DNA of 64,000 nt from Antechinus flavipes (lineage: Eukaryota). Below are positions 2,874 to 42,579 of the stretch, piece by piece. The DNA lies in contig NC_067400.1 in NCBI RefSeq assembly GCF_016432865.1, forward strand, positions 264,802,001 through 264,866,000. Reading direction: 5' to 3'. Position numbers and translations under genes: made by a program. The notes under the pieces are model-generated. The model saw nothing but the letters and a program-made list of their open reading frames with translations, did not search any database and was not told the DNA's origin. Positions within the stretch are counted from its first letter, which is position 1, and each line of letters starts with the position of its first letter.

Positions 2874-3869
2874 TACTCAGTGACTTTCCATTGACCTGAG
2901 ATGTACACCAGTGCCCATGAATATCTCCTGAAAGTTCTTTCTTTTGGCCTCCTTAGTTGTGCAGAATGGATCTTGCATTTTACATTTTCTTCCTCCAGAG
3001 AACCCAAACAGCTTCAAGAGAATAATTACCATAAACCAATTGTGTTGTTCTCTGACCAGTGAAAATTGCTCCATTAATCAGACTAGCTTCCAAGCTTTCA
3101 ATTCCAGGAATTCTCGTTTTGGACTGGCAGGGCAGAACAGGGCCACAGATAAATTAGTCCTTGTGTTATTGCATGTGAAAAGGAATTGATTTAAGATATT
3201 TCCTTCTCTGGGCTGACAACTTATCTAAATAGTCCTTGCCTCAACAAGACAATTCACATACAATTTGTGTACCACAAGGCTATTACAAGTACAGAACTTT
3301 GAGCCCTGCTCCGTGTTCTCAAATTGACATAAAGTCTTACAAAAAAAAAAAAACAAAAAACAAAAACCTTCCTATTAATGGACTGTTTTTTTTTTTTTTT
3401 TATAAAGTTGATTACTAAAAACAGAGAATGTAGCATTGAGGAAGGTATCAGATAGAAAATAAAAACAGTTTTTAAAGAAATAGTATATTTCTTTTGTGAA
3501 TGGTATGTTGATTTATTGAATTATTTATTGATTTGGGAGAAATTTTGGAGTTTACTGATTGTTTGAAATTTTAGAGACATTCAAAATTTATCCATTTAAT
3601 ACAGGGAGAAAAGTAATTACTGATGTGTCATAATTCTTGGGGTCATCTTTCTGGTCTCTTTATTCCTGTCTCTATTAGTAATTTCCATTGACAATAATAA
3701 TAGTTCCTATTACATATTATAAGAATAGTTTTTTGAACCACTAATGTAGGTATCTTGCAGAGTAAGATCTAATATTCTTATCTAGGCTACTATAGGTTAA
3801 TCTAATCTACAAATTGCTCCTTCATGACTCAGGGAATCAAATATCAAATGTACACGGTGGCTGATAGAC

Positions 3870-4045
3870 GACAGTAACTGCTTGACCCTAAGCAAATCAC
3901 TGAATTCTCTTTGCCTCAGTTTCCTCATCTACAAAATGAGCTGGAGAAGGAAATGACAAACTACTCCAGCATACTTACCAAGAAAACCCAAAATGGGGTC
4001 ATGACGAGTATGACACAGATGAACAACAACACAAATAACAACAAA
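3870..4045 (+). mobile_element. Mar1-type CORE-SINE, 5'-degraded
   Basis: cctcagtttcctcatctacaaaatgagctggagaaggaaatgacaaactactccagc...atggggtcatgacgag...aacaacaac. Confidence 0.8.
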
Positions 4046-5323
4046 AATAAAAATTGCATGAATTTTTCTTAGCAGAGCTTCCTAAAGGAGCTAGCTACTA
4101 CTTTCCTATGAATATATAATTTAAAGTGAGGCATTCAAACTTTCTAGCTTCAATTTCTTTGTCTGAAAAATAAGAATGATAATATTTGCACTCACTACCT
4201 CATAAAGTTATCAGGAGAACAGTTTCCTATAAGTAGAATGTTAGGGAGGGCAGGAACCATTTTAACTTTTTTAACTTTGAACTATTTTTGTCTTTTGACC
4301 TACACTTATCATTGCATTTAGCACATAGGACTATGGGTACTTGCTGAATATTTTGAATTGGATTAGATTTAATTCTAAGCTTTACAATTCTGTAGATATG
4401 AAATATTATAAACGTTGCAAACAGTTTACATGAAATCCTTGCTCTTTTCTGGATGCCAGCAAGTTCCTACCTGCCTTGCTTGGACACTATTGCATAAAGA
4501 CAGGATTAATTTCATTGTAACATTTCGGTGAAGTTGCTAGGCTTTTTGTTTAACTCCGTTGGAGATTGTTTCTCTTTCCTTGCATGAATCATTTTATGAT
4601 GTTAAACCTGGCTATATTGCTCAAAAATCACAGTCCCATCCTAATCTCCCAAACTATATTCTCTTCCCTGCTCTCTCCATTTATGGTCTTTGAATACCTA
4701 TTTTGTCCTCTTGCTCACAGGACATCTTCCTGTTTACCAGACCTTATGTTTCTATTTATATGTTTCCGATCTGAAACCATTCTAATCTATGCAAGATTCA
4801 CCGTGAAAAACCTTGATCTTCATCAATTAATGAAAAAAGAAACTAAGGGAAATCTTCCTGTGAGCCATCCCAATAGCTACGCTTCAAGAAGAAACTTTTA
4901 TAAGAATCATTCAAAGAAATGTCTTAGGTCAATCATAATAAAGAGGAAACCGAGAGCCAGAGCTTCCCCAGGTCACACATCTAGATGTTAACAAAATCAG
5001 AACTGAAACCTTGGCAAAAAGTCCACTGCTAAGATTCTGCTAATGGAGTCTTATTAAAATCTGGAAAAAGCTATTGAGATGACTCTAGAATAGGAGTTCT
5101 CAACCTCAAATCCATAGCAAAACATTATGGGGAAATTTTAGGGAGTCCATGAACTCAAATGGGGAAAAAAATTTACATCTTTATATTTTACTAACCTTTA
5201 AGTAACATTTAGCATTTCCTTCAATTAAATATATAGGTAACAAAACATTATTCTGAGAAGAGGTTCATCTGCTTCATTAGATTATTAAAGGGCTCTAGGA
5301 CAAGGTTAAAAACTTCTGGATTA

Positions 5324-7569: not shown

Positions 7570-8005
7570 CATAATCATGTGATCTTAGATCTATAGTTGG
7601 AAAGGACTTCAGAGTCCATTTAGTCTAATCCTCCTCATTTAAGGATTGAGATAAAGTCTCAAGGTCATATAGGTAATAAACATTAGAAGCAGGATATAAA
7701 TCCAGGTCCAAAGGCACTGAATATTCATCCTTCCCATTCCATCCCCCACCGCTACCCAAGGATCCATACAATTTTATCATAATTAATGTTATTATTTATT
7801 GTACAGTCATGTCTGACTCTTCATGATCCCATTTGGGATCTTCTTGGCAAAGATACTGGAATAATTTGCCACTTCTTTCTCCAGCTCATTTTATAGATAA
7901 GGAAACTGAGACAAACAGTATTAAATGATTTGCCCAGGGTCATATATGACTTCCTGAATATAACACCAGCACTCTATGTAACATGAAGCCACCTAGCTAT
8001 CCACC
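7570..8005 (-). mobile_element. MIR-like fragment (about 7570-7720) and Mar1-type SINE (about 7800-8005)
   Basis: gaaaggacttcagagtccatttagtctaatcc, then ttcttggcaaagatactggaataatttgccacttctttctccagctcattttatagataaggaaactgag. Confidence 0.75.
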
Positions 8006-8369
8006 ATAGTTAAGTGCAAATTACAATTTTGTAATAATAGTAAAGCAGATGGAATGGTATAGGAATGGAGTTCGGTTTCAAATTTTGACTCTAACACTAT
8101 CTCTGAGATGATTAATCATCTGTGTGATTGTGGGCAAATTAAGGAAACTCTATAGGCTTCAGGAATCTCCTAGAACTTCTCTACTAAGGCATAGATGAAT
8201 TGAGATCTGAAGATGGGGAGGGGGAGGGAAGGAAAGGATTCTTTATGCTGATGAAATCAGAAATTCTTTGTAAATTTGTCTGTTAATTGCAGTAAGAACT
8301 ACCATTTATATCACATTTTAAGGCTTAAATTTTAGTTACATTATCACATTTGTTTGTATAATTTAACGA

Positions 8370-8822
8370 TTTGGACTATCTTAAGAAGGAGAATTACACT
8401 GATGGATGTGGCTCTCTTCAACATTGAGATGATTCAAACCAGTTCCACTTGTGCACTGATGAAGAGAGCCATCTACACATAGAGAGAGGACTATAGGAAC
8501 AGAGTGTGGAACACAACATAGCATTCTCACTCTCTCTGTTGTTATTTACTTCCATTTTGTTTTCTTTCTCAGTTTTTTTCTTTTTCTTCCTTCTTGATCT
8601 GATTTTTCTTATACAACAAGATAACTGTATAAATATTTATACATATATTGGATCTAACATATATTTAACATCTATTGGACTACCTGCCAACTAGGAGAAG
8701 GGGTGGGAAGAAGAAGGAGAAATTTTGGAACAAAAGGTTATGCAAGGGTCAGTGTTGGAAGAATTTCCTATGCATATGATTTGTAAATAAAAAGCTTTAA
8801 TAAAAAATATTTTTTTTAAAAA
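8370..8822 (+). mobile_element. Older marsupial L1 3' end
   Basis: ctgatggatgtggctctcttcaacattgagatgattc...agagtgtggaacacaacatagcattctcactc...aataaaaagctttaataaaaaa tail. Paralogous to 24795-25265. Confidence 0.8.
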
Positions 8823-9299
8823 AGTAAAATTACAGTGACAGATGTCAACATGGGTAAAGAAAATAGATTTTTTTTATTCATGAAGCCAAACTGTTAAGTA
8901 AAGATTAGCAAATGTGCACAAAAATTGTTGACAGTCTAACTTCTTTTCTTCATTTTGAAGTTTCACATAAGACATCAAATGAAAATGTTTCAGGTGAAAG
9001 TAATATGATTACTTCCACCTAACAGAATATCCAGAATATTTGAAATATATATATTTTAGATATGTTCTCCAAAAGTGAAGATTAGAAATTTTCTAAGATT
9101 AGAAATTCATTGTTAAGCTAATAATCAGTAACATAATGATATTTTTTAAAATTCTCATTTTTGAGAATTAAGCAATTAACTGCTGATTCTTTGTTGTATT
9201 ATTACTAAGGTTAAAAACAAACTATAATAGCCTTTACATTTCTATCTGGCAATATAGCAAATATCCAAGTACTCTTCACTAGTCTTTTCAGGGAAACAG

Positions 9300-9470
9300 T
9301 GGTTAAAACACAGATACTTATTAGCGGTGTAAATTGGGCACATCACTTATCCCTGTTTGCCTCAGTTTTCTCATCTGTAAAATGAGCTAGAGAAGGAATG
9401 GGCAACCCACCCAGAATCTTTACCCAAAAACCCAAATGGGGTCCCAGTCAGATGCAATACAATAACAAGT
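9300..9470 (+). mobile_element. Mar1-type CORE-SINE fragment
   Basis: cctgtttgcctcagttttctcatctgtaaaatgagctagagaaggaatgggcaacc...aaatggggtc. Confidence 0.75.
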
Positions 9471-9879
9471 TTTCTTTCTCTCTTCCAGAGATATCTTGTT
9501 AATTCTCATCTTCATCCCGTTTGCTCATACTTTCTTTACCACATGGAATGAATGACTTCTTGCTTCTTTTCTGTCTAGCCAAATCCTCAACCCACTGAGA
9601 TTCAACGTGAGTCCAAATGGCTACAGATAACATTCCTCAAGGATTGTAGTTTATGTTGTTATTCCTTTCTCAAAATTCCTATAAAATCATTCATCAATGC
9701 GACTAATTTTGTTTTTGTATTATCATTTAATTGTTTCTTGCATGCCTATTTGTTCTCCAAAATGTTTTACATATGCATTTATGTTTTCTCCAATGGGGAT
9801 TTAAAATTCTTGAGTTTCAGTATCATCTCATATATCTTTCAGTGTCAAGTACTATAATATGCACATTCATATAGTTGTT

Positions 9880-34935: not shown

Positions 34936-35737
34936 GAGAGATAATAAAGAATAAAGAAATGAAGAAGAGAAGTGACTTCTTTCATGTTAAAGATAGAGCA
35001 GGGACTAGATCCTATGTCTTCTTATTGCCTCCACAGTATATTATATTACCCTCCCACCCACTAGGAGAAAAATAGCAGGACAATAAGTATGATACAATTG
35101 TGACATAAACTGCTAAATTTACACATCTCTGAATGTATTGAATCAGACTAAAAGTTATTTTCTCTGAACTTTGCATGATTAAGTCATAAACTTTAATTCA
35201 AATTAAAAAAACTTTAAAAATCATTCTGTGTAAATTCCTTTCAAGTTTGAATGAAAATGCCATGTGCAAGCTGTCACTGCCTTTAAATAATGAGACTAGT
35301 TTTAAAAAATCATCAATAGCTGGTATAAGGCTTCTGCATAAATTGAGTCAACTCTGAATTGGATTAATGAAAAGGAGTAATGATGGTAATAATTCCATAA
35401 CATTTAGATTTGAATTTGAAATACAAATCTTTTCTATCCAATTTAAACTCATAACTATGCTATTTTTAAGCACTTACTTACATTGATGACATGCCTTCAG
35501 TTGCTAACAGCTGAGTGGTAATAGTTGGGTTTGCTCCTGATAGTACATAAAGCAGATATTCCACAGTAACAATCAGTCAATCAACTAGGAATTATTAAGT
35601 ACTTAGGTACCTAAGAGTGCTAAGTCTGGAGTCAAGAAATGAGTTCAAATTCCGCTTCAGATACTCACTAATTGTATGACCCCCAAGATCATTTAACCTC
35701 TGTTTGCCATAATCCACTGAAAAAGGAAATGGCAAAT

Positions 35738-35881: not shown

Positions 35882-36640
35882 ATTGTTCTGTAAGAAATGA
35901 CAGCAGGATGAATACAGAGAGGACTGGCAAGACTTACATGAACTGATGCTAAGTGCAACGAGCAGAACCAGGAAATCATTATATACTTCAACAACGATAC
36001 TGTTTGAGGATTTATTCTGATGGAAGTGGATCTCTTAAATAAAGAGAGCTAATTCAATTTCAATTGATCAAGGATAGACAGAAGCAGCTACACCCAAAGA
36101 AAGAAAGAAAGAAACTCATAACTATGCTATTTTTAAGCACTTACTTACATTGATGACATGCCTTCAGTTGCTAACAGCTGAGTGGTAATAGTTGGGTTTG
36201 CTCCTGATAGTACATAAAGCAGATATTCCACAGTAACAATCAGTCAATCAACTAGGAATTATTAAGTACTTAGGTACCTAAGAAATGAATATAAACTGGG
36301 AAATGAATATAAACTGCTTGCATTTTTGTTTTTCTTCCCGGGTTATTTATACCTTCTGAATCCAATTCTCCCTGTGCAACAAGAGAACTGTTCGGTTCTG
36401 CACACATATATTGTATCTAGGATATATTGTAACCTATTTAACATGTAAAGGACTGCTTGACATTTGGGGGAGGGGATGGAGGGAGGGAGGGGAAAAATCG
36501 GAACAGAAATGAGTGCAAGGGATAATGTTGTAAAAAAATTACCCTGGCATAGATTCTGTCAATAAAAAGTTATTTTTTTTTTAATTAAAAATAAAAAAAA
36601 AAAATAAAGAAGAAGAAGAAAAGAAGAAGAAGAAATAAAC
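35882..36640 (+). mobile_element. Young L1 ORF2 end + 3' UTR + A/AAG tail, interrupted by a 172-bp local duplication
   Basis: attgttctgtaagaaatgacagcaggatgaatacagagagg matches 55510-55550. G-rich tract at about 36465-36495; tail to about 36640. Confidence 0.92.
36112..36283 (+). repeat. Exact 172-bp direct copy of 35445-35616 inserted inside the L1 3' UTR
   Basis: aaactcataactatgc...taggtacctaaga appears base-identical at both loci by manual comparison. Confidence 0.95.
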
Positions 36641-36738
36641 AAACGAACAGTAGGATCTGGAGAGTCACAAAGAGTTGGACTCAACTCAGCAATAATAACT
36701 TTGTTCTCAGATACTATGCTAAGTCCTGCATATACAAG

Positions 36739-37188
36739 TGTTGAGGTTGGGAAGGGGACCCCAAAAGTTTGGGGTCATAATCTGGTGTTGTGAGACATAT
36801 CAAAAGAATTTGCAGACTTGAACCCATTTCCTGGTCAAGGGGCAAAGTTTTATTGTAATTATAATGCCATTACAAGTCAACAAAATTCCAACAGAATTTA
36901 GCAAAGTCCCAAGAGAGAGGAGACAGCTTTATCCAGCTTTCTATCATTGACATGTTAATTCTATGGCCCAGAGGTAGGACCAGGGCCTGGGAGTGATCTG
37001 ATTTTGGTTCTCACTGACCAGATTGCCAATCAGTAATGAATCAGACAGATTGTTGTTTTTAGATTGGGAGTGTGGGAAGTCCCTGAGGCAGACTCCAAAG
37101 CCAGAAGATTTAGGATTACTGACTTATTGTTAGGACAGAAACTCCCCCTAAAATGAGGGGATCTCAAAGTCATTGTTGTATTACATCA
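36739..37188 (-). mobile_element. 3' LTR (450 bp)
   Basis: Minus-strand order CCAAT (about 37064), GATAAA TATA-like (about 36930), AATAAA (36849-36854). Aligns to 42117-42561. Confidence 0.93.
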
Positions 37189-37218
37189 TTTTCCTCTTTT
37201 AAGTAGTCATCCCCAAAT

Positions 37219-37800
37219 TCATTTGGGACAAAGGGATAGAAGTCTCATCTTCTGGAGCTGCTTCAGGCGGACAAGAGACATAGAGCTGCCCCTACTTAGA
37301 GGGTTCACACTGGAGAGGGGAGGCAAGATGGTGGCAGCAGCATTCAGAATTTCAGAATCAGTTGGCCAGTGGTATTCAGGATGAACAAGTAGCTGGAAGT
37401 TCATAGCTTGGAGTCTGGGGAAAACAAATCTCACAAGTAGGGTAAAAATGTAGGGGCTAAATATGAGCAAAAAGAATAATTAAAAGTGCAGTTAGTAGGG
37501 ACAATAGATGGGAATCTCAGCCAGAGCAAGGCTGGGGGCAGGAAGATGAGGCTGTCATGAATACTCTCTTCCAGGCAGCTTTTCCTAAAATAAATACCAA
37601 AGAATGTTTCCCCCCAAATCCCCACTTTTGTCTCCTTGAAGGGGGCGCAGTGTCTGAAGCAGTGGCAGTGTACACAGGGAAAGGAACACTCACATGACTT
37701 GTGGTACAAGCACCATAACCGATCTCTCAGAAACATCGAAGTAGAATGGAAATCCCATTTTACAAAGAAAAACATATCCCTTAAATGCACAGATGGTACC
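37219..37800 (-). pseudogene. env: ERV env remnants (SU C-terminus and TM cytoplasmic end; fusion/ISD region apparently deleted)
   Basis: ICAFKGYVFLC resembles class I CAP.GYVFLCG. IFSPYIFTLLVRFVFPRLQAM resembles LFGPCIFNLLVKFVSSRLQAI of HERV-W/ERV9/HERV-H-like TM. No LQNR.GLD motif seen. Confidence 0.8.
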
Positions 37801-38374
37801 TGAGGTCAAGTTTTGTAGGAGCTTCCTAGTTGTCCCCAAGGATGTTCATAATAACATGACATTATATTAATTGGAATGTTAGTTCTCAGGAGGTTACGAA
37901 GAAGCTTTAAGAAGGTGGTATAGAAGCATTATGAGTGCATTTGCCAGAATAATTTTGGAATGGATATATCCTAAATTATTATGTGGGTAAGAGATCCTTT
38001 CTGGCAAGGAAACAGGGGATAGTCAGGTTAAAATTATTCCCTTTTGGGGAGGAGGGTAGCTAGAACAAATGGGGCAGCATCCAGGGTCGGGATGGTAGCA
38101 TTTGGGAAGAGGGCCTTTGCAAATAATGCATCAGGTCACATATGTGGGCTGCCTTAGGGATGCTGAAGGCACACCCAGCAATCCTGAATACCCCCACTGC
38201 CCACGGAGTTCCCTAGCCTGACTAAAGACTAAGGAGTTCTCTCCCACTGGCAGGGGCCCACAAAGTGACCAAGAGAGCTGGAGAGAAAATGCTAAGAGCA
38301 AAGCTCTCATTCTTGGAGTGTTATTCCACGTGCACCTGGAAAAAGTGGAAAGTAATAAGAAAGAAAGCTAATCT

Positions 38375-39403
38375 TAAGTGCCTCAGTCATCTTTTGAGTT
38401 ATTTAAGATGTGAAGGCCTGCCATTATGGATCTGCAAGGACTGAGCAGGCTGGAAAAAAGTTCCCACTGGCTGGGCTCTGGGATTAGAAACTGGCCTGAG
38501 GGTGTTTGAAATCATTCTGAAGGAGAAAGGGTGTGTCCCCTTTCTTCTGAGATGGGGAAGTAAAGGTGCCATGAGCAGGGGCATATGGGCAACTGAATCT
38601 GCAAGCCTGTTTCCCTTGCATATTTAATTGTAGAACTTTTTGCTGTCAAAAGTCCTCTTTCTTTACATATAACCCCATGAGTGTGCAAAATATGAAAAGC
38701 ATATTTGGAGTCAGTATAGATGTTCACTTTCAATAGTTTTTCCAGTTCCAAGAAAACTGGACCCTCTGTAAACCATTCACCATCTGGGTTGTAATGTCAC
38801 CGACTGAGTATTGTCAAGGAGCAGAGCTGCAGGGGTAAGGATGTGCACACTGGGAGAGTCAAGTTGGGGTGTCTAGCAGGAGAGCCTGAGCTGGTAAACC
38901 TCCTTCTAGAAAGCCATTGATGACCTTTGGTTTCAAATATGCTCAATTAGAAGGGCTGTGGCAGCTAATTTTAAGGCAGGAAGTTCACCCTCAAAACACA
39001 AAGTTTCTTTGAGAAGTAAGCAAGGGTCTGGGATAAGATTCAAGAGTCAAAGCCCTAGCACCTGGCCCACCTTTCATCATCCTCCAGAGTAAAAGGCTTA
39101 AGGTAGGACTAAGGCTGAGTAAGAGATTAGTTTATCTTTTAGGGTCTTAATAAACTATGCGGGCCCTTAGACAAAGAAACTTCATAGCCTTGAGTGGGGG
39201 ACTGTCCATATGCATTGATGGGGATTATATTCCCCTGGATTTGCCCCTGAATTTTTATGCAGTGGTATGCAAAGGAAAGCATCTTTAAGATCTAAAGTAG
39301 AAAAACATTTTGTCCCCTGGAAAACTTGTATAGGGCTCATGGCTTCTACTGACCATTTGCTCTGATGATAGAAATTTGCTATAAGAGGAAAAAGCAGAGA
39401 CAT
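38375..39403 (-). pseudogene. pol: ERV pol remnants (RT, connection, RNase H, integrase) with large internal deletions and frameshifts
   Basis: RT FSTLDLKDAFLCIPLH (about 39257-39306) and WTV jumping straight to QGYEVS; PLAYFSKKL (about 39000-39026); RNase H VNIYTDSKYAFHILHTHGVICKERGLLT (about 38640-38740); IN SLQIHNG/AFTS*ITQKMTEALKI (about 38375-38445). Confidence 0.9.
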
Positions 39404-40784
39404 GATTATAACAGCATCAAAATGGATCCTTCAGGCTTCAGCCTGAAAGCACATACATGACAGGATGTCTGTCTGTCTGTCTGACATGCTGATCATGCAA
39501 TAATAATTAGCCAGACTCAGAAATAATCAGGTAGGAAACAAAGAAACAGAACTGGGGAACTAAGTCAGAAGGATTCCACTTTAAGCAGAAGCTAAAGTTG
39601 TCCTTTCAACTCTTGCCCAGATAAAATCCCACTTGGAAACTTACAGCATTTCTCTTGAAGGGTGGGCTACTGACTTAATGATCAGGCAACCAGATTCAGA
39701 AGTCAAAAGAATATTGGTAATAGTCCCAAGAGATTTTATCTCTAATAGCAAATTCTACCAATCACAGCTTAGGACTAGATACATTATTTTTAAAATTTAC
39801 CAGGACTTAAATCCATAAGAGATCTTGTTTATCATGTTTTATATGTTTAAACTTATCCTGGTGCAAAGGATCAATCATTATACAGGCTTATAAATTTACT
39901 TAGAATTTTCATTCTTTGTTCATTGTTTAGAAACTATAAATCCTAAACAGGCTCATGTCTCAGGGCTGATGGCTTTGCTTACCCTAATGGTTTCAAGAAA
40001 ACTGGCAAGCCTACAAATTAAGGGGAATTAACAGAGACTCCAGGGAAGGGGCTAAGCTTGCTGTTGCCCATCCCAACAATTCTTAGTGTTTTTCTGGGCT
40101 GTGCTGTTTGATATGTCTCCCATTCTGTGAAGTGGAAAAAAATATTGCACACTTCATTCTTGGAGGTAACTGATAATTTAACATGATGAGAATAATTCCA
40201 AGAAACTTAGTTAACAATTTTAGAATTTTCTTAAGTAATAGCCAAATAGTCTTAGCTGTAGTTTCAGTTCCCTTAAATAAGTTTCCCTTTTGTTTAAGGG
40301 ATAAAACAAGACAATCCTTAAAATTGAGATAGAATAGATTTTTAAATTGACTTAATTTTAGTTAATGAGATTCCCTAAATTCTGATTAAATGTTCTAGAC
40401 AAACTGAATTGACATTTGGTTATTTTCCAATTCATGCAAATCATTTCTCTTCTGTGAGCCAGGAAAAGGGTTGAGGTGGCACTTTTTACTGACAGGGCTC
40501 TCAGAAGTCTGACTCTAGATAACTAGAATTTTTAAAGTAGTGGCAAACTGCTTTTCTGTTTTCCTAAAGTTGCAAAACTCTTCTGTTAACACTATCAGTA
40601 CAAATAGATTACAATTCACAGATCCCTTTAGTGAGCTTTAATTAAAACTCTTTTAAAAATTGCTTTTACCATCATATTTCAGACAAATTTCCAAATTACT
40701 TTACATACACATAGAAATCATTTATCTGTTGGTCACATCTAAAAAACCCATAAAGTTATCAAATATGAAGCAATTATATCCGAT

Positions 40785-40965
40785 AAGCAGTTAACATTCA
40801 AATAGCACATTTTATGCTAAGCATTTTTGCAATCATATGGTCTTCACAACTATTATTTCTCTTTACAAATCAGAAAACTGAGCAGAGATAAAATAATTTG
40901 CTATAAATTACATAGCTAATACATATCCATAATTGAAACGGAGAATGGTGCTTTTACCAAATGCA
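40785..40965 (-). mobile_element. Heavily decayed near-full-length MIR inside the provirus
   Basis: gcagttaacattcaaatagcac...gtcttcacaactattatttctctttacaaatcagaaaactgagcagag...ggtgcttttaccaaatgcataagctg follows the antisense MIR consensus from tail to head. Confidence 0.7.
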
Positions 40966-40988
40966 TAAGCTGACTGGGTTTTCTCACT

Positions 40989-41201
40989 TCACATTGACAT
41001 GCTGGGTGGTGCCAGGAGTACCCAAATTCTGGCCAGAACCTGCTGAAGGCTCAGGTAACTAGTGCCAAAATAACCCTTTGATGGTAGTTTCAGGAGCCAA
41101 AACTCAGGAAATGCTGACCATGGAACCTGACCCCGACTCCATTCCCATTTCCCAAAGCTGGATTGGGGAGGTGTTTGGGCAAGACTGAATGAGTTCCCCA
41201 C
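40989..41201 (-). pseudogene. Possible gag matrix (p15-like) remnant, GTG in place of ATG
   Basis: (M)GNSFS fits the MGxxxS myristoylation consensus. TPxxxxxGKW has the same spacing as MLV TPLSLTLGHW, and SAFPEF..LPSKGYF resembles SAEWPTF..WPRDGTF. Position fits a gag start after the leader. By-eye match only. Confidence 0.4.
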
Positions 41202-41524
41202 AATTTTGCTTCCCCTATTTCTACAGGTGAGGCAGAATTTGAGTGTTAATCTGATCTGAGTTAAAAGGGATTAGCAATAAATTGCTATTTACCTGATTTG
41301 TTTTTCTTTCTTCCATAATGGGGTAAATTCCTGGAATTATTTCCAGTATTTCAAGAATTTATCTTGCAATCTTAAAATGATTAATTGGCATACTTCTTAA
41401 TCATTGCTTTCAAAAATTTTGAGAATCTGCTAAGATGTTATTTTTATTTTATTTAGTTAACTTTTTTGTGTAGCCCCTAGATTAGCCAGAGCTGAAGTCC
41501 ACAGAAAAAAAGTTAGGCTTTTCA

Positions 41525-41680
41525 GAGCAGCCAGGTGGCAAAGTGGTTAGAGCACCAGTCCTGAAGTCAGGAGGACCTGAATTCAAATCTGGCTTCAGAC
41601 ACTTAACACTTCCTGAATGTCTGACCTTGGGCAAGTCACTTAACTCCAACTGCCTCAGGAAAAAAAAAAAAAAAAAAAAA
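41525..41680 (+). mobile_element. WSINE1-type SINE inserted in the ERV leader
   Basis: gcagccaggtggcaaagtggttagagcacc...ctcagg + poly-A; imperfect TSD agttaggcttttcaga / ggtcaggcctttaaaga. Confidence 0.9.
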
Positions 41681-42052
41681 GGTCAGGCCTTTAAAGAAAT
41701 TTTCCCAGCATTTTAACAGAGGATTTAAATTTCTTTTTTTTTTTTTTTTTGCTAGTTACATTTTAAATCTTTTCAGGTAACAAAATCTAGTTCACAGAAC
41801 AAACATGACACAGACATCCTGCACAAAGATTTAACCACAGACAAAATGACGTGAAAGAGGACCATCCCATTTTTGCCAAAAGCCATTTGTCTTCTCCTTA
41901 TGAACGTTGCAAAAATTGCAAGAATTTCCCAATCTGGGCATTTCCAGTCAAGGTAAACTTGCTGAGTGTGAGTGTCACAATGACCCAGACAAGCCTTCTC
42001 CCAGTGGCTTGGGGTGTCTCACTATAGGATTGTGGGATAAAAAATTGGCGGG

Positions 42053-42063
42053 CTTACCTTGAC
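42053..42063 (-). promoter_or_regulatory. ERV major splice donor
   Basis: Minus strand GTCAAG|GTAAGC about 60 nt downstream of the 5' LTR, the typical class I leader position. Confidence 0.6.
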
Positions 42064-42093
42064 AAAGAGGGAATCAAGCTAGGGGAGGCCAGA

Positions 42094-42111
42094 CTCTTCC
42101 CATAAATGCCA
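42094..42111 (-). promoter_or_regulatory. Degenerate primer-binding site
   Basis: TGGCATTTATGGGAAGAG just after the 5' LTR. Closest by eye to tRNA-Gly PBS (TGGTGCATTGGCCGGGAA), but a poor match. Confidence 0.35.
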
Positions 42112-42116
42112 CAAAA

Positions 42117-42561
42117 TGTTGAAATTGGGAAAGGGTGGCAAGATATCTCAAAAGAATTTGCAGGCTTGAAGCCATTTCCTGGTCAAGGGGCAAAGTTTTA
42201 TTGTAATTATAACACCATTACCAGCGAACTAAATTCCAACAGAATTTAGCAAGTTCCCAAGAGAGGTGAGACAGCTTTATCCAGCTTTCTATCATTGACA
42301 AGTTAATTCTATGGCCCAGAGGTAGGGCCAAGGCCAGGGAGTGGTCTCCTGATTTTGGTTCTTACTCACCAGATTATTATTCAGCAATGAATTGAGGAGT
42401 CTTCTATTCAGAATCAGACAGATTGTTGTTCTTAGATTGGGAGTGTGGGAAGTCCCTGAAGCAGACTCCAAAACCAGAAGATTTAGAATTACTGACTTAT
42501 TGTTAGAACAGAAGCCCCTCTAAAATCAGGGGACCTCAATGTCATAAGCTATATTACATCA
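42117..42561 (-). mobile_element. 5' LTR (445 bp)
   Basis: Aligns to 36739-37188 at roughly 88% by manual count, plus two indels of about 25-30 bp; AATAAA at 42197-42202 (minus). Confidence 0.93.
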
Positions 42562-42579
42562 CAAGAAAAGATTAAAATT

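Follow-up and report, generated by a model that had tools for sequence, protein, structure and literature searches.

The window analyzed here, a 64,000-nucleotide stretch of contig NC_067400.1 (positions 264,802,001 to 264,866,000), contains on its minus strand a class I (gamma-like) endogenous retrovirus (ERV), recognized by long terminal repeats (LTRs) with TG...CA ends, a 4-bp target duplication, a tRNA primer site, and a polypurine tract (Table 1). In place of gag, pro, and the start of reverse transcriptase (RT), this element carries an AT-rich block that encloses a decayed short interspersed element (SINE). The locus is an ordinary copy of its family and a real feature. An earlier note, made from the letters alone, had described CAAG duplications around LTRs that were about 88% identical, an RT that jumps from WTV to QGYEVS, fragmentary integrase and env, and no visible gag capsid, and these observations held: CAAG was present on both sides, the LTRs were 90.0% identical over 419 aligned sites (Kimura two-parameter distance [K2P] 0.109), the jump was seen at 39200/39201, integrase, env, and RNase H survived as remnants only, and 18 gag probes (one family relative and 17 long open reading frames of Gag_p30 loci) gave no tblastn match on the window copy. 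Pfam searches of this copy returned only RVT_1 and RNase_H, both below threshold, and a protein search with an integrase fragment gave nine matches, none of them named. In 8 of 54 copies, the primer site matched tRNA-Ile(AAT) at 14–16 of 18 positions.

Table 1. Parts of the element and its target duplications, by position within the window.
Feature	Position	Strand	Remark
Target site duplication CAAG, left	36735..36738	.	Matches CAAG at the right end
3' LTR, 450 bp	36739..37188	-	TG...CA ends
Polypurine tract	37189..37200	-	Purine run immediately ahead of the 3' LTR
Near-identical tract, very likely gene conversion	37217..38728	-	Versus copies L032 (3.6 Mb) and L039 (8.9 Mb)
Probable env 5' remnant	37982..38337	-	Follows integrase and has a CWVC motif, hence the assignment; no Pfam match
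RNase H and integrase N-terminal remnants	38364..38796	-	
Reverse transcriptase remnants	38800..39324	-	Private recent deletion at 39200/39201
AT-rich block in place of gag, pro, and RT start	39325..41858	-	Without recognizable retroviral homology
Old CORE-SINE (MIR-class) remnant in block	40786..40928	-	In ERV sense; head missing; family-shared deletions
Younger tRNA-SINE with poly(A) and degenerate target duplication	41523..41680	+	Private to the window copy
First four gag codons, ATG at 41870	41859..41870	-	Last sequence common with gag-bearing relatives
Retained 5' leader	41871..42096	-	Likely packaging region
Decayed primer binding site	42097..42114	-	Family primer tRNA-Ile(AAT); ~12/18 matches here by eye
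5' LTR, 445 bp	42117..42561	-	TG...CA ends
Target site duplication CAAG, right	42562..42565	.	Contigs of three other organisms bridge the junction

The survey of the family took in the window copy plus 85 further loci, which were fetched because they best matched window queries or a gag piece from copy L032; the census proportions are therefore biased. The block was present in 64 of the 86 copies, none of which had 5' gag: 60, including the window copy, lacked 3' gag as well, and four half-gag copies retained it. Sixteen copies had 5' gag, none of them with the block by the cover thresholds used, and six copies had neither. Nearly all of 33 loci fetched around best matches were collinear with the window element, and the SINE-bearing block was covered at 83–89% by all 40 scored matches, one of which was the window itself. 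In first-look searches, parts of the block drew 916–1672 candidates and the LTR drew 2446, figures that are not copy numbers. In the block-bearing copies, pro, part of RT, and the integrase core were lost family-wide, most of the integrase C-terminus was gone too, and many dispersed copies with independent flanks shared one loss of coding sequence. Sharing of breakpoints, which the earlier note had proposed to test, extends to the block, several deletions, and the SINE but not to the RT gap, where 36 of 40 measurable copies (the window counted among them) had at least 40 extra letters. The counter-case named in that note, family members with an intact gag and no MIR together with locus-private deletions, did not hold: relatives with gag and without the SINE do exist, all of them broken, but the block and several deletions are common to dozens of copies.

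Gag-type and block-type copies agreed to ~12 nucleotides past the gag ATG and then diverged sharply, a switch that was displayed in nine block-type versus five gag-type copies. In the main block type, the foreign segment of ~2.5 kb rejoined the retroviral sequence in RT at ~39325. The last ~330 bp of the block (39325–39650), which matched no gag-type copy, was absent from the four half-gag copies, and the point where these depart from the block is a short GA repeat that capsid also has. A single contiguous capture of 2.5 kb, with the half-gag copies as later recombinants, would be the simpler reading. The G+C fraction was 0.29–0.39 in the block versus 0.43–0.47 in gag and pol. In Pfam, 12 read-through frames taken from three copies of the block gave one chance match (E 0.075), and Rfam gave no match at E values up to 0.5.

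The gag-bearing relatives carried Gag_p30 (PF02093), an integrase core, and an integrase C-terminus of the murine leukemia virus (MLV) type (PF18697), with PF02093 and PF18697 above cut-off, and they had related LTRs of the same age as block-bearing copies; the median distance between the two LTRs of a copy was 0.172 in five gag-bearing copies and 0.173 in 34 block-bearing copies. LTR, leader, and pol of block-type copies came from the same lineage as these relatives. In a pol tree, the block-bearing copies and the hybrid L032 formed a star-like clade (support 99) that was separate from the gag-bearing copies. L035 (G000:C4:421895400-421904900), in which a block-type 5' half is joined to a gag-type pol, fell outside the block clade and is likely to be a recombinant between helper and parasite. 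L032 itself (G000:C3:261246500-261256400) combines a block-type leader with gag pieces and a converted tract, and a piece of a second, unrelated class I ERV (integrase end, env, and LTR) is nested in it right after the primer site.

The decayed SINE serves as an internal clock. A CORE-SINE profile was made from 38 host copies lying outside ERVs, and the window SINE scored 32.4 bits against it (E 1.3e-8; profile positions 22–202 of 261), compared to 13.1 bits with an earlier profile of another SINE subfamily. The match covered the CORE domain and 3' tail of the host SINEs; the element that had been described as a near-full-length MIR at 40785–40965 is therefore a real, deleted CORE-SINE that is shorter than claimed and not near full length, as its tRNA-derived head is absent. 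Among 33 ERV-borne SINE pieces, five deletions were common to at least 80%, and a shared non-host base occupied 51 of 155 columns. SINE distances were 0.154 among copies and 0.35 to the host consensus (0.56 by multiple alignment), with free host copies at 0.32; the SINE is thus far more diverged than the LTR pair, at well above half the LTR distance, as had been claimed. Because deletions and substitutions are common across copies, most of the decay preceded amplification, and the SINE probably sat for a long time in host DNA. The idea of a non-autonomous family with a SINE passenger was borne out in dozens of copies, and we regard it as very likely that the family spread with its SINE already decayed.

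Median pairwise K2P distances among copies were 0.171 in the block, 0.183 in RT, 0.199 in 3' pol/env, and 0.23–0.24 in the LTRs; interior distances (0.15–0.24 overall) did not exceed those of the LTRs. The right junction of the window insertion was bridged, with 4–7% differences, by contigs of organisms E, F, and H, and because these three other organisms share it, the insertion predates their split. The younger SINE and the near-identical tract listed in Table 1 had both escaped the earlier note. We take this SINE to be WSINE1-like. If the young SINE is WSINE1 and the host a dasyurid, the insertion would date to before ~30 million years ago (PMC4408412, from the part of that paper available to us).

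Over 37217–38728, the window copy shared 95.9% identity with L032 at a distance of 3.6 Mb and 94.1% with L039 at a distance of 8.9 Mb (about 37400–38527), whereas the next best full-length matches reached 74–85%. A perfect run of 251 bp was shared with L032 (38139–38389), compared to at most 46 bp in other pairs of the alignment, and distances of 0.043 (L032) and 0.061 (L039) in the tract contrasted with 0.14–0.28 elsewhere in these pairs. L032 had 27 of the 29 otherwise window-private sites in 37862–38361. The LTRs of the three copies were only ~80% alike (76–82%), and ~70 kb of flanks had only common repeats in common. In an all-versus-all comparison, at least 95% identity over 200 bp was reached by 8 of the 37 pairs less than 10 Mb apart and by 1 of the 2983 other pairs; these counts became 5 of 32 and 1 of 2754 without the three C3 loci, and 3 of 25 and 0 of 1813 for pairs with a newly fetched locus. 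Five further independent groups showed the same pattern, two of them in opposite orientation, and identity in converted pairs fell off in gradients. In the longest tract observed, between L031 and L052 (C4, 0.43 Mb apart, opposite orientation), identity rose from 85% to 96–100% over ~2 kb of pol, and LTRs and flanks were unrelated. Segmental duplication was ruled out for five pairs by unrelated flanks. The G+C fraction of the pol-3'/env stretch was 0.464 in converted copies versus 0.448 (p 0.009), with no such rise in the block, which fits GC-biased conversion. We are highly confident that the tracts arose by ectopic, non-allelic gene conversion.

All eight best 200-bp segments began at window-equivalent positions 38083–39026, where 722 of 2454 background pairs also peaked; for the four groups with both halves available, the chance expectation is 0.29 to the fourth power, or 0.007, for an interval that was chosen post hoc. 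The near-threshold pair L044/L217, which lacks the 3' part, peaked in RT. The element may thus carry a recombination hotspot in its pol-3'/env stretch, a proposal to which we give a little less than even weight. A PRDM9-like gene lies at G000:C3:612595000-612600400 (L243, L246), with an SSXRD exon, a SET-like exon, and an open zinc-finger exon of eight rather dissimilar fingers; given this predicted gene, a sequence-directed hotspot would be possible.

Several further observations concern single loci. An RT piece is inverted within L059 (sense 3863–4100). Directly downstream of L048 (sense 7586–9500) lies the pol of an unrelated ERV, open over long stretches and apparently class II. At G000:C7:26111879, a Gag_p30 match sits in an open frame of 1591 amino acids that is a candidate gag-pol, with little decay, from a different class I ERV. 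The interval G000:C4:40969871-41102606 holds 8 of 13 matches to the tRNA-Ile 3' pattern, one of which was verified as tRNA-Ile(AAT). In the window, an exact direct repeat of 172 bp (35445–35616 and 36112–36283, 667 apart) flanks an N stretch and adjoins the 3' end of an L1; it is a young duplication or an assembly feature.

Taken together, it is likely that the element is an old, high-copy class I ERV derivative in which a non-retroviral block of ~2.5 kb stands for gag and pro and whose 3' interior was later converted. The block starts ~12 nucleotides after the gag ATG and returns in RT, and its SINE had suffered deletions and mutations ahead of the multiplication of copies. In the proposed sequence of events, a host RNA was probably captured by template switching during reverse transcription, with LTRs, primer site, leader, and polypurine tract kept. 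A burst likely driven in trans by gag-bearing helpers would have followed, as suggested by the equal LTR ages of both types and the recombinants between them. The RT gap and the young SINE are part of a private decay that came afterwards, and the 1.5 kb tract common with two distant, non-duplicated loci probably reflects repeated ectopic conversion, favored within 10 Mb and in pol-3'/env. The boldest form of this account, that a marsupial ERV parasite took 2.5 kb of host DNA for gag, outnumbered its helper, and seeded a lasting hotspot in its pol/env remnant that still converts copies with 20% divergence over distances of as much as 9 Mb, is tentative, and we consider it possible rather than probable.

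A number of points weigh against this account. Every gag-bearing relative fetched was broken, with no intact helper among them. Own-genome searches for a source with three parts of the block returned family copies only among the best 40 scored, and BLAST of the block against 404 kb of host flanks found SINEs and one weak match of 70 bp. The lack of Pfam matches in the block is weak evidence, since the same scan also left the true 5' gag regions in L190 and in L192 unmatched. More than one subfamily may be mixed in the host SINE profile, and the SINE could look long decayed because of rapid mutation in viral cycles. The pol tree, rooted at its midpoint, had 39 rows, 15 of 54 loci being omitted for low cover. 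For the tracts, pair counts were non-independent, L032 and L039 came from searches with the window itself, no tract was present in 29 of the 37 near pairs, and the tract is known from a single assembly.

The block could instead have its origin in an older LTR element of a different family or in a fossil provirus, with a SINE-bearing non-coding leader or interior, that recombined into this lineage as PhER did into KoRV. A non-coding ERV segment would show no protein trace, the block opens with a TG-rich, leader-like stretch to which the gag-type leader/matrix region gave a single weak tblastx match, and recombination commonly yields mosaic ERVs that go on to amplify (PMC4724089). Beyond its first 100 nucleotides, however, neither blastn nor tblastx aligned the block with gag-type relatives, it was met only inside the LTR, leader, and pol of its own family among 32 newly inspected loci, and its composition and SINE decay resemble host DNA. 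We judge the block to be host DNA with reasonable confidence and an origin in another LTR element to be unlikely.

The earlier note had gone further and proposed that a whole ruined provirus core, much older than its LTRs, was re-mobilized between young LTRs at this locus. The window LTR distance (0.107–0.109) was indeed the second lowest of 34, and coding segments are missing family-wide. Against this stand the pol distances, which are no greater than those of the LTRs; the interior branch of the window copy (~0.064, from medians), which is near half its LTR distance (0.054); the common lineage of LTR and pol with the gag-bearing relatives; the old insertion; and the RT gap, which is absent from low-divergence orthologous contigs of all four runs, these breaking off or running on there, one with 77 extra letters. 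The distances, orthologous contigs, and private RT gap largely refute the proposal, which we now regard as very improbable. That the near-identical tracts are artefacts of assembly or polishing, or remnants of local segmental duplication, would suit their occurrence in one assembly and the single perfect run of 251 bp, yet the divergent LTRs and flanks, the gradients, and the five additional groups, two of them in opposite orientation, argue otherwise, and contigs of the closest run matched neighboring unique parts with 0–2 differences. This explanation is very unlikely, and we retain gene conversion as the origin of the tracts.

As a marsupial counterpart of ETn and recKoRV, the family is old and fully amplified, and it has a SINE clock that dates the passenger before amplification. 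The conversion tracts matter more widely: they show exchange between well-diverged proviruses over megabases, which distorts ERV trees and dates, and allow ectopic recombination in marsupials to be counted directly as a function of distance. ERV-driven instability in marsupials has been proposed, yet no measurement was found in the literature examined, nor any description of megabase-range ERV conversion in marsupials or of this family, which may be named in Repbase or Dfam, both outside the search. In humans, HERV15 conversion at AZFa has reportedly occurred.

Comparison with known systems, drawn from the available parts of the papers cited, places the family as follows. Dasyurid class I ERVs include the clades MEGrv1-3 (PMC11334065), and the devil has ERV1 solo LTRs and an ERV1 expansion at about 40–30 million years ago (PMC4408412). 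By description, these resemble the present family in class, 4-nucleotide duplication, and LTRs of 450–580 bp; those parts of the two papers describe no gag-replaced subfamily, and the window LTR motifs were absent from four supplement files of PMC4408412; another, file 1, may hold a matching ERV1 sequence. Like mouse ETn/MusD and ERV-beta4_1B, the middle half of which lacks retroviral homology, the family is LTR-flanked and non-coding, those elements being mobilized by coding relatives (PMC6466679); unlike these class II elements, it is class I, marsupial, and long extinct, with a datable decayed SINE in its passenger. LTR-mediated retrocopies also show partly replaced retroviral open reading frames, sharp switch points, and chimeras that can re-amplify (Tan et al., 2016; PMC5131818), whereas here no coding exons or parent gene were identified and the copies are many and dispersed. 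Koala recKoRV/PhER (PMC6112702) shares marsupial class I ends and leader around a foreign middle, with target duplications. In the present family, however, the middle is no recognized retroelement, pol and env belong to the LTR lineage rather than to a different, older retroelement, the LTRs are not much younger than the interior, and the event probably dates back tens of millions of years. The conversion resembles human HERV-H/HERV15 recombination and LTR conversion, in which exchange on one chromosome is clustered in the element and declines with distance, with PRDM9 motifs implicated and LTR tracts of 14–450 bp (PMC4195946, PMC4921805); in contrast, the partners described here are ~20% diverged, lie up to 9 Mb apart in both orientations, and share interior tracts of 1–2 kb.

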